Of a stretch of DNA of 22,183 bases, positions 1,641 through 6,400 are shown in pieces. The number at the start of each line of letters is the position of its first letter. The first letter of the stretch is position 1. Position numbers and translations under genes: made by a program. Origin of the DNA: a virus (lineage: Duplodnaviria; Heunggongvirae; Uroviricota; Caudoviricetes); IMG/VR virus record IMGVR_UViG_2778261277_000014. One strand, written 5' to 3'. Below the pieces are notes generated by a model. It was given only the letters and a program-made list of their open reading frames with translations, was not told the DNA's origin and made no database searches.

Positions 1641-4112
1641 TTAAGAATCAGCCTGACTCGGGATCAGTTTTTGCCAGATAGCTGAAACGTATTTTGCCTG
1701 GTAACGGGCGTCATCAAGTGCATTATGGCGCTCACCTTCGAATGGAATAGCCGTTCTGGCATCGAAGTCTATGGCTTTCCCCAGCTCAACGATTGTGCGT
1801 ACATCGCGATCGTTGTAGTAACGCCACGGGCAGGGGATCCCCTGCCGTTCGTATGAACGGCGCAAAATCGTGTTGTCGAAGTTGGCTCCATTTCCCCAGA
1901 CATGAACAAAAAATTCACCGGAGTTTTCGTCGATAAATTCCCGCAATTGTAACAGTGCATCATCTAACGGGATTTCATCGGTCATAATGGCAGATTGCGC
2001 TTCGCGTGATTGTTTAAGCCACCATTTAATGGTGTCCCGATCAATGACTCCGCCAGCAGTTTCCAGATCGATAGTCTTACTAAATTCCGGTCCCATATCT
2101 CCGGTTTGCGGATCGAAAAATATTGCACCTATTGAGATAATCGGGGCATCGGGATTTTTTCCCATGGTTTCAAGGTCGATCATCAGATGAATCCCCGCTC
2201 TGCTGGTGGATGTGAGATTATGATGACCGTTTGCCTTAATTAAGGGATCTGACGCCTCGCCAGTTTCACTATCGCTGGCATGATGCTGATTGCCGCCAGT
2301 GTTCTCCTTGTGCTGATGCGCAGTACCTTCCATTTCCTCCGGATCATTTTCCTGAACTTCAGGCTGATTCTCTCCATCGAATATTTCCTGGTATGTTGCG
2401 TCACCCATCACCGCACCACAATCAGGGCAGTTGCCGCCACCGCTCTGACCGCAGGCGGTGCAGATCTTTTCCGGTTCCTGTTGCACTACTGGTTCAGGTT
2501 GTTTCGTTTCTGGCTCGTTTTGTTGCGTATTTGGGCTGTTTTGTTCCGCTTTCTGGTCGTTCTGTTCCGTTTCTTGCTGGTTCTGGTTCACAGAATCGCG
2601 GGTCTGGATCCCCTTAATCCATTTCGGATCATTCGGGTCGCTAATCCCTTCAACAAATTTACCACGTGATACTGCAAGCAGTTCATCGGCGTCAGGCTGG
2701 CTGATATTGGCTGCCTGCATAATTTTGTTTACTTCGTCAGCGGTAACTTTTACTGACCCTGGTTGTGCGGTCGTGTCAGATGCACCAGTATTTTGTTGTG
2801 AACCTGAGTATGTACCGTTTTTGCGGGCGAAATATTCTTCTTTCGTGATTTCAGTAGCCCCAGCAGACAGCGCCTTATCCAGACCAGAAAGTTTATTTGC
2901 GCGACCGTATTTTTCGCCATCCTTGTCGGTGAAGAGGAAGTAGAACGGCCCCTCACGTTCTACAGATGGTTCGACTTCCACTTTGCATTCGGTTTTTTCG
3001 TTGTCTGGAATTGCCGTTTCCACTGCATCAGTTTCTGGTACTGGCGACGAGAGAGTATCAGTTGCGCTCTGATTTGTTCCTTCATCTTCAAACACGCCCT
3101 TTGTAGTCAGGTATTCAGTAATGTATTTGTTCAGTGCCACAGGGTCTTTGTGAATGTCGATCGGACGTTCACGGACAAGGCCAAAAATAGTCTGGCGGTC
3201 GTAGCGAAGGGCATCAGGCTGTTTGCGCATTGATGCCGAGATACGCTTCCAGTCTTCGCGGTCGTTGTCGATAACTTCATTTTTTGCCCAGCGATGGATG
3301 CTGCCGTCAATGTTTCCGGCATCCACATCACCAGGCCAGAGAGCGTAGGCCAGTTCGTCATCCAGTGTTTTCCATGTCTGCTTGTATTCGCGATGAATGG
3401 CAGCAATGACCGGGTTGATTTTTCCTGTTGAATTTTCAGTGTGCTGTTGATTGGCTCTGGCGCGGGCGAGATCAACAACAGACGTGTATTTTCCGGCTTC
3501 CTTGCGTTCACCTTCGCGACGTTTTTTCCAGATGCGCATCTCTGCCTGAATTTCGGGCCATTTGGCACCAGGCTTACATTTATGCTTAACCCACCCGATG
3601 GCATGCAGCTTAAGCTCCGGATACATAGCGTTAACTTCTGGCATTTTCATCAACGCTTCAACGATATGGCCGTCGAATGTTGCCATGTCTTCCTGCAACA
3701 ATTCCTGTGCGCTAATCACCATATCAACAGTGATGTTTTCACATGTGTCGAACTTAACCATGACAGCGTTCTGTACTTCAGGGGCTAGGTTGTCAAAAGT
3801 GACGTTCATCGGATCGGATTCAGTCTCGACCGGGACAAAGGAAGCAGACGCCTCATCCCAGCGGTTTTCCTGCATATATTCAGCATCCCAGGAATCGAGG
3901 GCAGGGCGGGGTATACCGGGTTTATCCTCGCAAACAAGAAATTTATAAGCGCAGTCCTGAGCAGCCGGATAATGTTCCAGGAATTGCCAGTGAAATTTTG
4001 CGCGGGCGCGACGTTCATCACCGGCTTCAATGGCAGTGGCTACAGCGACGGCACCTTCTTCCTTTATTGCCTGTTCGTCCGGAATGGCGGCGCAAATAAA
4101 GACTTTACTCAT
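1641..4112 (-). CDS. Large multidomain exonuclease: N-terminal unknown domain, C4 zinc-ribbon, Q/E/N/P-rich repeat linker, C-terminal DnaQ-like DEDDh 3'-5' exonuclease domain
   Basis: 823-aa ORF; C-terminus carries Exo I (MIDLETMG), Exo II (WGNGANFD) and Exo III (HNALDDARY) motifs; CTACGQSGGGNCPDCG zinc-ribbon; sits where lambdoid recombination/exonuclease genes lie. Confidence 0.85.
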   Translation of the reverse strand: MSKVFICAAIPDEQAIKEEGAVAVATAIEAGDERRARAKFHWQFLEHYPAAQDCAYKFLVCEDKPGIPRPALDSWDAEYMQENRWDEASASFVPVETESDPMNVTFDNLAPEVQNAVMVKFDTCENITVDMVISAQELLQEDMATFDGHIVEALMKMPEVNAMYPELKLHAIGWVKHKCKPGAKWPEIQAEMRIWKKRREGERKEAGKYTSVVDLARARANQQHTENSTGKINPVIAAIHREYKQTWKTLDDELAYALWPGDVDAGNIDGSIHRWAKNEVIDNDREDWKRISASMRKQPDALRYDRQTIFGLVRERPIDIHKDPVALNKYITEYLTTKGVFEDEGTNQSATDTLSSPVPETDAVETAIPDNEKTECKVEVEPSVEREGPFYFLFTDKDGEKYGRANKLSGLDKALSAGATEITKEEYFARKNGTYSGSQQNTGASDTTAQPGSVKVTADEVNKIMQAANISQPDADELLAVSRGKFVEGISDPNDPKWIKGIQTRDSVNQNQQETEQNDQKAEQNSPNTQQNEPETKQPEPVVQQEPEKICTACGQSGGGNCPDCGAVMGDATYQEIFDGENQPEVQENDPEEMEGTAHQHKENTGGNQHHASDSETGEASDPLIKANGHHNLTSTSRAGIHLMIDLETMGKNPDAPIISIGAIFFDPQTGDMGPEFSKTIDLETAGGVIDRDTIKWWLKQSREAQSAIMTDEIPLDDALLQLREFIDENSGEFFVHVWGNGANFDNTILRRSYERQGIPCPWRYYNDRDVRTIVELGKAIDFDARTAIPFEGERHNALDDARYQAKYVSAIWQKLIPSQADS
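2480..2600. repeat. Imperfect ~20-bp tandem repeats inside the exonuclease gene (encode the Q/N/E/P-rich low-complexity linker)
   Basis: Direct reading: reiterated units resembling TTCTGG(C/T)..GTT(T/C)TGTT(C/G)CG on the plus strand; on the minus strand they encode repeated QN.QE..EQN peptide units. Confidence 0.6.
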
Positions 4113-4204: not shown

Positions 4205-4396
4205 TTAAAGACCTGCCGGGATTTCGTTATTATCCTGGTGAATAACTTTATCGACCGGGTAACAGTTACCGGGAATTTTCTGTTCGGTTGCTGCAGTCAT
4301 ACACTCCTGCATTGTCCTGTGAACACTGACTGCAATATCAACTGGCTCTCCGGAAACAAGAAAAACTGTCAGAACAAGCGCAAATGCTGAATTCAT
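4205..4396 (-). CDS. ydfD: YdfD-like small protein (63 aa) with N-terminal signal peptide/TM segment
   Basis: ATG at 4396 preceded by AAGGA SD; start overlaps the upstream gene's stop (ATGA); hydrophobic N-terminus MNSAFALVLTVFLVSG; position directly after dicB as in Qin prophage (recalled, not searched). Confidence 0.7.
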   Translation of the reverse strand: MNSAFALVLTVFLVSGEPVDIAVSVHRTMQECMTAATEQKIPGNCYPVDKVIHQDNNEIPAGL

Positions 4397-4581
4397 TGTG
4401 CACATCCTTTTGGCATCAGACGTAAACGAGCCAGCATTGAAACAATGCATATTTTATTTAATAGCTCCCGTTCTTGTTTTCTCTTGTTAATGGCATCTTC
4501 AGTAAATACAGGGTTACTGATAGTGACACCAATTTCAAAACAACCTTCAGACGTATTAACGTTTGGTAATAACGTTTTCAT
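4393..4581 (-). CDS. dicB: Cell division inhibitor DicB (62 aa)
   Basis: ATG at 4581 with GAGGA SD; the 62-aa product MKTLLPNVNTSEGCFEIG...MPKGCAQ matches my recollection of E. coli DicB; lies immediately downstream of a DicF-like sRNA, the canonical arrangement. Confidence 0.8.
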   Translation of the reverse strand: MKTLLPNVNTSEGCFEIGVTISNPVFTEDAINKRKQERELLNKICIVSMLARLRLMPKGCAQ

Positions 4582-4750
4582 TATCGCGTCCTCAACAATG
4601 AATTTTGTGATGCAGTGCCTGGTGCCTCCAGGTGACGTTAACCAGTTAACAATTAACGCCGGATACAGAGAATCCACCCATAACACTGTTTTTGGTTTTA
4701 ACTGTTCCGCGTGCGCTTAGCCGCATTCACCGCATCACAAAATTCACTTT

Positions 4751-4808
4751 AAAAACGGCGGCAGAGCAGTCACGGAGTAAAACTGATACCGCCAAACGTC
4801 ACCAGAAA
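4751..4808 (-). ncRNA. dicF: DicF-like small RNA (about 53 nt) ending in an intrinsic terminator (GGCGG...GCCGCC stem + U tract)
   Basis: Minus-strand sequence UUUCUGGUGACGUUUGGCGGUAUCAGUUUUACUCCGUGACUGCUCUGCCGCCGUUUUU matches, from memory, the published DicF sRNA at all but about one position; located between the ydf genes and dicB. Confidence 0.65.
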
Positions 4809-5067
4809 ATTGATAACAGAGGGCGTTGCAGCGGGGTTGTCACTTAAGCGTATGGTCAACCTGACAACTCGGTGTCCTCAACGGGGAAGGAATAACCCCG
4901 CCATACTTACCGCCGCGCCATTTTGCGGGTTGCCACAACCGGAAGCGCACGGTCGAATTAAATTTAACGACACCGTACAGTGAGACGAACTTCGCCGTGC
5001 GCTTTCGTGTTGTGTGCCTGCTTTTAACCACGTCAGGCGAGGTGGTATCCTTAAAATCACCACAGTT

Positions 5068-5643
5068 TTAAGGATTCATTAAGCAATGTCGCAACCACCA
5101 ATAAATCCGCTTAAGAACATGAAAATTGATTACTGGTATAAAGCGCTTACAGTTGTTGGCGCTGCGTTGTTTGTCTTTAATGGAACGTCTTTTTTTGACA
5201 GATATCCCGTTGTTCCATTGGGTTTTTTGTCCTCCGGCATCTTTTTTATTGGTTTGGGGGAGTGGATTAATCACCCTCTCAAAGTGAGATTTATTGGTCC
5301 TGGAGTTTGGACTTGTGGATATAATCGTTCTTCGTGCGCACTCGGTATCATCTTCGACATACTTGGTTGTTTCCTGATTGTTACAGGAGTCGTCAAGTTC
5401 TTCTGATGTAAAACCGCAAATGGGGCACGTAACGGGAATTTTGAAAAGCGTTTCTCCGGGTTCCAGAACAAAATTTTCTGCGGTCTGATTTTGCTTCTCA
5501 TATTTGTGCTCCGCGTCATTGTGAGAGCACATTCTTATTCTGAGTGCCTGTTTAAACTCACTGAAGCTGAGAGCTTCTTCGCCTTCGGCAAGGCCTTCGA
5601 AGTATTCTTCGTAAGCCTTTTCCATGATTGTGTCGAAATCCAT
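5068..5643 (-). CDS. Hypothetical protein (191 aa) of the dicB-type operon; acidic N-terminal half with a CPICG motif, K/R/N-rich C-terminal half
   Basis: ATG at 5643 with AGGTGA SD; its start overlaps the stop of the upstream ydfA-like gene (translational coupling). The C-terminal half is compositionally odd and lies antisense to a plausible membrane-protein ORF (see 5086..5406). Confidence 0.5.
   Translation of the reverse strand: MDFDTIMEKAYEEYFEGLAEGEEALSFSEFKQALRIRMCSHNDAEHKYEKQNQTAENFVLEPGETLFKIPVTCPICGFTSEELDDSCNNQETTKYVEDDTECARRTIISTSPNSRTNKSHFERVINPLPQTNKKDAGGQKTQWNNGISVKKRRSIKDKQRSANNCKRFIPVINFHVLKRIYWWLRHCLMNP
5086..5406 (+). CDS. Alternative call: small 3-TM membrane protein (106 aa) antisense to the 3' half of the 191-aa ORF
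   Basis: ATG with TAAGGA SD; three hydrophobic segments flanked by charged residues. Cannot be distinguished from the opposite-strand ORF by sequence inspection alone. Confidence 0.3.
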   Translation: MSQPPINPLKNMKIDYWYKALTVVGAALFVFNGTSFFDRYPVVPLGFLSSGIFFIGLGEWINHPLKVRFIGPGVWTCGYNRSSCALGIIFDILGCFLIVTGVVKFF

Positions 5644-5644
5644 A

Positions 5645-5800
5645 TCACTCACCTGAGTTTCTTTCCAGCCAGCGACGGGCACCATTTTCGGTTTTAAACG
5701 TTTTGCTTTTGGTATACGTCATTGCGGTGAACGTGCCGTCCTGGTTTGGAAACACGCCGTACACCAGAGATTCGTTGTTGCCAAGATCGATAGTATCCAT
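5645..5800 (-). CDS. YdfA-like small protein (51 aa), first gene of the dicB-type operon
   Basis: ATG at 5800 preceded by GAGGT SD; stop overlaps next gene's ATG; size and position match ydfA of Qin (recalled). Confidence 0.55.
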   Translation of the reverse strand: MDTIDLGNNESLVYGVFPNQDGTFTAMTYTKSKTFKTENGARRWLERNSGE

Positions 5801-5992: not shown

Positions 5993-6400
5993 TTATTGAT
6001 GCTTGTTGCGTTTGCGAGCCTCTAATAGCTCGGTGAACAGGCGATTAAAATTCTCAACGCGGGCGCGGAGTTCGCTGAGTTGTGCTTGTTGCTCTGATTT
6101 AGGAAGTGCGCGATACAAACGCAGCATCTCTAACTCATCTTCCGATAAGTCTAAGGCACTATCGAGTGAAACAGGGGGAGCTGGTGTTTTGTCCTCGTCG
6201 CCAAACAGTATCCAGGTTGGTGAACATTGCAATACCTCGGCGAGGCGATGCAAATTTTGCCCGCGCGGGGCTGTATGGTCACTTTCCCATAATGAAATTG
6301 ATGAGCCAGATACGCCAGCAGCTTTGCTTAAACCGTTTTGACTTAAGCCTACCTGCTTACGTCTTTCTCTAATGCGTTGACCTAAAGTTTTCTCGTTCAT
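5993..6400 (-). CDS. dicA: Prophage repressor, HTH XRE family, DicA-like (cI-type), 135 aa
   Basis: HTH segment LSQNGLSKAAGVSGSSISLWES and the VLQCSPTWILFGDEDK block recalled from DicA; divergent from a Cro-like gene; start at 6400 is an internal Met of the 152-aa track ORF, chosen to match DicA length; no SD (possibly leaderless). Confidence 0.88.
   Translation of the reverse strand: MNEKTLGQRIRERRKQVGLSQNGLSKAAGVSGSSISLWESDHTAPRGQNLHRLAEVLQCSPTWILFGDEDKTPAPPVSLDSALDLSEDELEMLRLYRALPKSEQQAQLSELRARVENFNRLFTELLEARKRNKHQ

Follow-up and report, generated by a model that had tools for sequence, protein, structure and literature searches.

A candidate pair of fully overlapping antisense genes in a mosaic prophage cassette of Escherichia coli

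We analysed a 22,183-nucleotide stretch of viral DNA (IMG/VR record IMGVR_UViG_2778261277_000014; hereafter the window), which represents the immunity and early region of a Qin/Rac-like lambdoid prophage of E. coli. Our subject is a short mosaic cassette (positions 5051 to 5542) that carries open reading frames (ORFs) on both strands of the same DNA. The plus-strand ORF (5086-5406) encodes 106 amino acids and lies entirely within a minus-strand ORF (5068-5643) of 191 codons plus a stop, or of 205 codons if read from an upstream ATG at 5685. An earlier note, made from the sequence alone, had described these two overlapping ORFs as mutually exclusive. Both are indeed present, each with a start codon and a Shine-Dalgarno (SD)-like sequence, and their mutual exclusion finds no support. 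From the comparative data we consider it probable that the cassette holds two real convergent genes sharing the same DNA, i.e. a conserved, fully overlapping antisense pair, located in the slot of sieB.

To our knowledge, very few long antisense overlaps between genes of bacteria or phages are well supported, and claims of this kind mostly rely on expression without conservation. The evidence presented here is independent of gene callers, as it consists of a replicated deficit of the three codons that create antisense stops, with negative controls within the same family. It makes the cassette a rare well-supported candidate for two genes encoded on complementary strands of the same DNA.

A three-helix membrane protein family

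On comparative grounds the plus ORF is certainly a gene, and its product founds a new, unannotated family of three-helix membrane proteins of about 105 amino acids. A protein search returned 60 homologues, all of roughly 100-110 amino acids and with identities from 99% down to 34%, whose starts and stops align; they come from Yersinia, Herminiimonas, Reinekea and many metagenomes. A profile search against 1.84 billion representatives gave 485 clusters at E≤1e-3, and tblastn found the family in phages mEp390 and Bcep176 too. Two motifs are invariant, WYKA and G.GEW.NHP (W17, Y18, K19 and A20; G56, G58, E59, W60, N62, H63 and P64). The ratio of nonsynonymous to synonymous substitution rates (dN/dS, Nei-Gojobori) is 0.06-0.18 in the plus frame. 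Among diverged enterobacterial lineages, substitutions fall at plus codon positions 1/2/3 in proportions such as 12/7/35, and the minus-frame translation changes about twice as fast as that of the plus frame. We retrieved 198 E. coli-type loci, with 27 alleles among them, and the plus ORF is unbroken in every one. One of the options offered by the earlier note, a small membrane-protein gene embedded antisense in the early-left operon, is thus borne out by the homologues, the dN/dS and the substitution pattern.

The TAAGGA SD ascribed to this gene is found at 5069-5074, 11 nt before the ATG. The three transmembrane helices that had been read from its translation are recovered in an AlphaFold2 (AF2) model built with 42 sequences (predicted local distance difference test, pLDDT, 84; predicted template modelling score, pTM, 0.71), which shows three long helices (residues 17-32, 42-62 and 85-105) and a beta-hairpin (65-79) beside the conserved motif. 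Applying the positive-inside rule, the topology is likely N-in/C-out. We found no relative in Pfam, PHROG, NCBIfam, PADLOC and PDB-sequence searches, and fold searches gave generic matches only. Nor is the plus product detectably related to SieB, the membrane protein that a related prophage encodes in this slot: there is no Pfam SieB match at E≤1, and none in PADLOC or NCBIfam.

The opposite view, in which the plus ORF is spurious and only the 191-amino acid minus ORF is a real gene, is the one implicit in existing annotations: the annotators of HannyBb and mEp390 and the PHROGs called only the minus ORF, which is co-oriented with and coupled to ydfA. Against it stand hundreds of plus homologues, some of them in places where the antisense frame is full of stops, and the fact that purifying selection within the overlap acts on the plus frame only. 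Phage mEp390 is a telling case. Its RefSeq gene gp39 (locus L007, 2956-3411) was called opposite the membrane homologue with the remark 'similar to Bcep176 gp33'; gp39 has no similarity to gp33 (E 0.53), and it is the unannotated opposite frame that resembles it (E 2e-17). That frame appears, from its sequence, to use a TTG start behind a conserved AAGGA. The comparative data refute the minus-only view, to which we give practically no credence. The earlier note had named purifying selection on a single frame as the result that would undo its either-or reading; within the overlap this is what we find, for the plus frame alone and at the amino-acid level.

Annotation of the locus is accordingly patchy. 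In KSC1031, a 100%-identical genome, the NCBI pipeline PGAP calls a truncated ydfB (5542-5643) and nothing on either strand from dicB to 5542. The 191-amino acid minus ORF is a hypothetical protein in some PGAP-annotated genomes, and the annotation of phage HannyBb has the 205-amino acid version. Both products are deposited in public databases as 'hypothetical protein'; PGAP mostly annotates neither frame, and phage pipelines annotate the strand opposite the membrane gene. Pfam, PHROGs, NCBIfam and PADLOC all lack a conserved family that ~15% of complete E. coli genomes carry beside the prophage repressor, which amounts to an annotation blind spot.

Some members of the family deserve mention in their own right. 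The copy of the membrane gene in Shigella flexneri CP182557.1 (locus L030, 4989-5282) has decayed to a pseudogene, its frame broken after 11 codons, and the block upstream of it carries a deletion. Arcobacter sp. NZ_CP182343.1 has three copies of a homologue at three chromosomal sites with matching statistics, suggesting a repeated mobile element; these copies have 10 stops in the antisense frame. In Desulfocapsaceae metagenome-assembled genomes (loci L031, L032, L035 and L036), distant homologues are convergent to a conserved 84-amino acid protein with a CPSCG motif. We considered this protein as a counterpart of the CPxCG peptide described below and rejected it: it does not overlap the membrane gene, it adjoins a NiFe-hydrogenase large-subunit gene, and the resemblance is probably coincidental.

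Stop avoidance in the antisense frame

The two frames are codon-aligned in antisense (5086-5068=18), so the minus frame stays open only if the membrane gene is free of TTA, CTA and TCA codons. The part of the minus ORF concerned, which we call the tail (5068-5406, minus strand; amino acids 80-191), comprises 107 codons antisense to the membrane gene. Its translation had been remarked upon as K/R/N-rich and of low complexity; it is basic and hydrophilic (isoelectric point 9.7, grand average of hydropathy -1.1). In seven enterobacterial lineages, CTN, TCN and TTR codons of the membrane gene never end in A (0/103), as opposed to 22% of the other four-fold codons (63/284; p=5e-10). Pooling 13 lineages, CTA accounts for 1 of 135 and TCA for 1 of 34 codons of their boxes, compared to 34% for CCA, 28% for ACA, 26% for GGA and 16% for ATA. 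The latter codons being common, a general avoidance of A at third positions or of TA dinucleotides was discarded as the cause.

We computed the expected number of antisense stops from the codon usage of flanking long ORFs and obtained 2-6 per gene, with a probability of zero stops of 0.005-0.12 per lineage. A single open frame is therefore unremarkable, but its persistence across lineages is not: third-position divergence among sub-lineages is 0.5-0.6, with synonymous sites near saturation, so that the stop-free state has been maintained through many synonymous changes. The deficit was replicated in a separate metagenome scan comprising five environmental lineages, together with a Roseateles locus absent from the first test: 0 of 115 at-risk codons end in A, against 49 of 289 control codons (17%; p=3e-8). 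Family members without the minus ORF served as negative controls. When matched for GC content, they carry A-ending codons at 47 of 294 at-risk positions (with versus without ORF, p=1e-7); homologues of similar GC lacking the ORF have 1-16 antisense stops, and co-oriented chromosomal homologues 5-16. Both frames are thus open beyond chance in related sequences. Judged by these codon counts, selection is shown to remove TTA, CTA and TCA codons from the plus strand, leaving the tail stop-free wherever the ORF exists. The idea that the tail might be fortuitous does not survive its being stop-free in at least 18 diverged lineages from two independent data sets, and preceded by a conserved minus-frame peptide.

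These counts bear directly on the possibility that the plus gene alone matters, and that the tail is a tolerated accident of the codon-aligned frame and of a preference for T-ending codons, an early CPxCG peptide simply lacking a nearby stop. Of the antisense frames, the -1 frame stays open most readily, and the plus genes are indeed rich in T at third positions (CTT is 64% of CTN); nonsense alleles segregating at about the neutral rate, a minus ORF that ends right after its CPVC, and the lack of a fold in the AF2 model of the minus product, all detailed below, also speak for it. Yet the deficit of A-ending codons is limited to the three that generate stops, it recurs in lineages close to synonymous saturation, and it reappears in a separate data set with GC-matched controls, for which reasons we find this explanation very doubtful.

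Upstream of the overlap, the minus ORF is under a different regime. A cassette-specific segment (5407-5541, minus strand; amino acids 35-79), with a possible native start at M38 (5530-5532), contains the conserved peptide F-x-I-P-x-x-C-P-x-C-G-F (5410-5445, minus strand) directly before the overlap. From its pattern of substitution, this segment is coding in the minus frame and under purifying selection. Among E. coli, Escherichia sp., a metagenomic Enterobacteriaceae phage type and Yersinia, pairwise differences distribute as 54/52/100 over minus codon positions 1/2/3, and the peptide itself shows third-position variants (CCC, CCA, CCG and CCT for Pro; ATT, ATC and ATA for Ile; TGC and TGT for Cys; GGT and GGA for Gly). 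The same excess is seen in a second phage subfamily, with the peptide K-P-L-Y-D-K-C-P-x-C-G (44/32/77), and in the mEp390/Pantoea subfamily, with an MxYxFFExL...PGSV.I peptide (54/52/108). Roseateles and four environmental lineages share L-P-x-G-x-K-F-x-P-L-H-x-x-C-P-x-C-G-x-D, which ends exactly at the plus stop codon, as does the P-x3-4-C-P-x-C-G peptide of our minus ORF; taking the eight CPxCG lineages together, differences are 137/116/260. Two other sources of this conservation were tried and dropped: an alternative plus-strand frame, the one with the same third positions, has stops in several lineages, and no significant structure is found in the region as a 3' untranslated region (3' UTR) of the plus gene (z=+0.8). 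The minus product does not belong among rubredoxins or zinc ribbons, since a single CPxCG is conserved and the other cysteines vary by lineage; the Pfam RUBY_RBDX match (E 0.13) lies below cut-off.

The beginning of the minus ORF is of yet another origin. The earlier note had it translationally coupled to ydfA, and this is so: the TGA stop of ydfA (5647-5645) is separated by one base from the ATG at 5643. This junction is the native one between ydfA and ydfB and also occurs in K-12 Qin. Codons 1-34 (5542-5643, minus strand) derive from ydfB (phrog_2061, 3e-21) and are what PGAP labels 'ydfB, missing C-terminus'. Of the ~42 residues of full-length YdfB, only these 34 match, and homology with K-12 has its limit at 5543. 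Rather than the unusual bipartite protein of the Qin operon that had been proposed, the ORF is therefore an in-frame fusion of ydfB codons 1-34 to a cassette ORF. Likewise, the statement that the stretch replaces ydfB and ydfC of Qin is right for ydfC and for the last 8 YdfB codons, while YdfB codons 1-34 are kept. Along its full length (residues 1-191) the product matches phrog_35040 (E 5e-141), but these very minus-strand ORFs make up that family, and the match therefore says nothing about function. Junctions differ between loci and all leave the cassette ORF translatable, be it through the ydfB fusion, the ydfA start codon or an ATG of its own. As an example, in a group of diverged Escherichia alleles (P0066, P0067, P0070, L127, L129 and L130) it starts at the ydfA initiation codon (MGIQKQ or MGIREQ) and crosses the membrane gene and the non-coding block in frame before entering ydfC, for a total of 245-280 codons.

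The mosaic cassette and its setting

The ~490 bp of the cassette fill the slot that in K-12 Qin is taken by the 3' end of ydfB and by ydfC. Homology with K-12 Qin has its left limit at 5025 and picks up again at 5543, and the left flank is common to other prophages up to 5049-5052. The segment 5051-5542 is found at ≥96% identity in ~800 of 5,426 complete E. coli genomes (~15%); in the remaining ones only the flanks match. The cassette sits near the prophage repressor in Yersinia, metagenomic and E. coli prophages. In the Rac-like prophage L004 the same slot contains sieB, on the plus strand between kil and ydfB. Other contents are a 61-amino acid zinc-finger-like CPAC...CPEH protein in an E. 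coli prophage (L003, 2245-2430, plus strand) and a 66-amino acid soluble protein (L005, 2185-2385, plus strand) with a 32-nt overlap with a minus-strand gene of 121 amino acids. In two phage lineages, tRNA genes lie in the early operon directly beside the cassette, on the minus strand (L120, 4803-4875; L210, 2773-2846), and in L124 their position is occupied by DicF, C4 antisense RNA and IsrK. We found no account in the literature of the cassette, of the membrane protein family or of the ydfB fusion.

Directly upstream of the membrane gene, at the left boundary of the variable slot, lies a conserved non-coding block (5013-5078, plus strand). It contains the invariant pairs GCCTG (5016-5020)...CAGGC (5034-5038) and CCAC (5028-5031)...GTGG (5042-5045), interleaved in a pseudoknot-like order, an extended -10-like element (TGgTATCCT, 5043-5051) and a covarying hairpin (5049-5056 with 5066-5073), five pairs of which show compensatory changes. 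The 3' arm of the hairpin overlaps the SD of the next plus-oriented gene, whether this is the membrane gene, the 66-amino acid gene or another one. The distance from the block to the plus gene downstream is constant in every locus of the E. coli/Yersinia and L210 types, and ~55 nt of the block are also present in L004 (2110-2150), L005 (2109-2190) and L206 (about 5263-5343, minus strand); sieB is preceded by the core block without the TATCCT element (the hairpin was not checked there). The block has no Rfam match. Its layout makes it a candidate promoter or leader of the plus-oriented gene slot. At the other end of the pair, a canonical terminator follows in locus L315. There, a bidirectional-looking intrinsic terminator hairpin (AAAAAACCCGC...GCGGGTTT, about 3440-3465) is found just upstream of the minus ORF start, so that the 3' UTR of the plus transcript takes in the N-terminal coding part of the minus ORF.

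The surroundings in the window are those of an early-left, dicB-type operon, the biology of which has been described (bioRxiv 10.1101/2023.04.14.536235). On the minus strand we find, upstream of the minus ORF, a DicA/CI-like helix-turn-helix repressor (5993-6400) and ydfA (DUF1391; 5645-5800); downstream are the DicF small RNA (sRNA; 4756-4807; Rfam RF00039, 72.5 bits) and dicB (4393-4581), as well as an exonuclease gene (1641-4112), and the early region also holds a DUF1482/ydfD-like gene on this strand. Genes similar to cro and ydaT are on the plus strand. A promoter scan flagged a sigma-70-like site upstream of ydfA (5905-5877, minus strand), which fits a DicA-repressed promoter of the dicB operon. 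An Rfam match to STnc100 from the 5' region of dicB to DicF (4549-4758, minus strand) is below threshold, with 34.5 bits against a gathering score of 47.

Proposed working and known systems

Several observations weigh against two functional products. Within the overlap, selection is not purifying on both: compared to 0.06-0.18 in the plus frame, dN/dS in the minus frame of the tail is 0.6-2.2, i.e. around 1, so no constraint is seen at the amino-acid level. Going by these rates, the tail is shown to drift freely in sequence, as a passenger of the plus gene. Its C-termini also vary between lineages, ending 3-15 codons inside the plus gene in one subfamily and 5-14 codons past the plus start in others, and continuing into ydfC in some alleles. 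Escherichia prophages have three independent nonsense alleles of the minus frame (5244T>A, 5338G>T and 5457C>A), and in another one (L125) the minus ORF stops right after CPVC. With 42 of the 954 possible single-nucleotide variants of the overlap creating a minus stop, and 44 polymorphic sites only in the E. coli allele set, nonsense alleles arise at about the neutral rate, so that resident or cryptic prophages, at least, can do without the minus ORF; the alleles may reflect the decay of lytic-side genes in such prophages. The N-terminal peptide of the mEp390 subfamily is different and has no CPxCG. AF2 gives no confident fold for the 191-amino acid product, although a pLDDT of 43 with a shallow alignment does not separate disorder from too few data. 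As for the plus gene, a simple consensus promoter scan flagged no promoter for it, no clear terminator follows it within the window, and the exclusion role discussed below would be deduced from its position, as SieB, PADLOC and other families gave no match.

Part of these data have an attractive explanation in our main rival hypothesis, namely that the minus ORF is kept open only for ribosome transit. The early transcript would remain translated across the membrane gene, avoiding Rho-dependent polarity and helping RNA polymerase against convergent transcription, and the tail peptide would be irrelevant. A dN/dS around 1 and variable ends are what one would expect, and some alleles read in frame through the non-coding block into ydfC (245-271 amino acids). 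The antisense RNA is rich in A and C and poor in G (plus-strand GC skew +0.11 to +0.21, AT skew -0.25 to -0.44), resembling a Rho loading site. Termination would be costly where the pair is found in mEp390 and Roseateles, namely between cro and the cII/replication genes. But no antisense frame is open across sieB, which fills this slot in a related prophage; the operon has ~380 nt of untranslated RNA further downstream in any case (the DicF region); and mere transit needs no conserved N-terminal peptide. Moreover, in L315 and L322 the minus ORF is outside any traversing operon and still stop-free: it is alone on its strand, with its neighbours on the plus strand (in L315 the repressor, accessory genes, the membrane gene and then early genes), so that the pair behaves as a self-contained unit. 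We regard transit alone as unlikely. Because the antisense of sieB is not open, the DicF region is untranslated and the minus ORF stands alone in L315 and L322, we favour a self-contained module in which the minus product, or its complete translation, matters.

Such a module could work as follows. The membrane gene has the slot and orientation of sieB, against the DicA-repressed early-left operon; in the lysogen, the conserved block upstream would probably drive its expression, as the position of that block suggests. Its product may be a membrane accessory factor of the exclusion or abortive-infection type, a role suggested by its location next to the repressor and by analogy with sieB. Firing of the early operon would carry transcription and translation of the minus ORF across the membrane gene, and convergent transcription over ~340 bp would oppose expression of the plus gene, making the two states antagonistic. 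The open tail might be needed as a non-specific hydrophilic extension of a small Zn-knuckle-like protein, or the ORF might have to be translated to its end. One can go further and imagine a coupled pair, in which the membrane protein is an exclusion or abortive-infection effector (or a toxin) expressed by the prophage, the antisense CPxCG protein, made only when the lytic/early side fires, is its dedicated antagonist or regulator, convergent transcription is the switch, and complementary coding ties inheritance and exchange of both as a unit. This elaboration seems to us quite unlikely as it stands. If the cassette were truly an effector/antagonist or exclusion/self-immunity unit, it would represent a new way of linking two interacting genes.

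It is instructive to compare the cassette with known systems. Compared to type I toxin-antitoxin systems, it shares a small hydrophobic membrane protein opposite an antisense transcript, a mobile element as carrier and, in prediction, an upstream hairpin able to occlude the SD. It is not one of them, however, as these consist of a toxin below ~60 amino acids and a non-coding antisense RNA: the plus product is about twice the typical toxin size, with three helices and a conserved hairpin motif, and the antisense partner looks translated and exceeds 450 nt. With prophage morons located by the repressor, of the lambda rexAB type, it has in common being an accessory cassette of the immunity/early region with mosaic boundaries, and in L315 it comes at the end of a string of genes co-oriented with the repressor. 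Unlike them, it has a second gene lying antisense to the first, and its promoter and terminator are candidates only. The minus product has the first 34 residues and the ydfA coupling of the 42-residue YdfB of Qin, but the last 8 codons of ydfB and all of ydfC are replaced, and its other 157 residues are unrelated.

Antisense genes of E. coli O157:H7, such as ano/ECs2385, also involve ORFs on complementary strands, one of them missed by annotation. These overlaps are mostly short and young ORFs, supported by RNA sequencing and ribosome profiling with little conservation (PMC5960689), whereas the evidence for the cassette is comparative and deep, with stop avoidance across subfamilies and a conserved N-terminal peptide, and its overlap spans an entire 107-codon gene in the codon-aligned frame. 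Another close parallel is found in SieB of P22, lambda and Rac, a prophage-side membrane protein encoded in the same slot and orientation. In P22, sieB is controlled by an antisense RNA from the lytic side (PMC12197685, PMC7067206), and genes antisense to lytic genes are typical accessory loci (PMC7067206). The proteins have no sequence or family relationship, the plus product having 106 amino acids and SieB 156-190. The antisense side differs too: sieB has no open antisense frame, and in the SieB/Esc/sas system of P22 the antisense partner is a 105-nt sRNA, where in the cassette it is a long protein-coding ORF.

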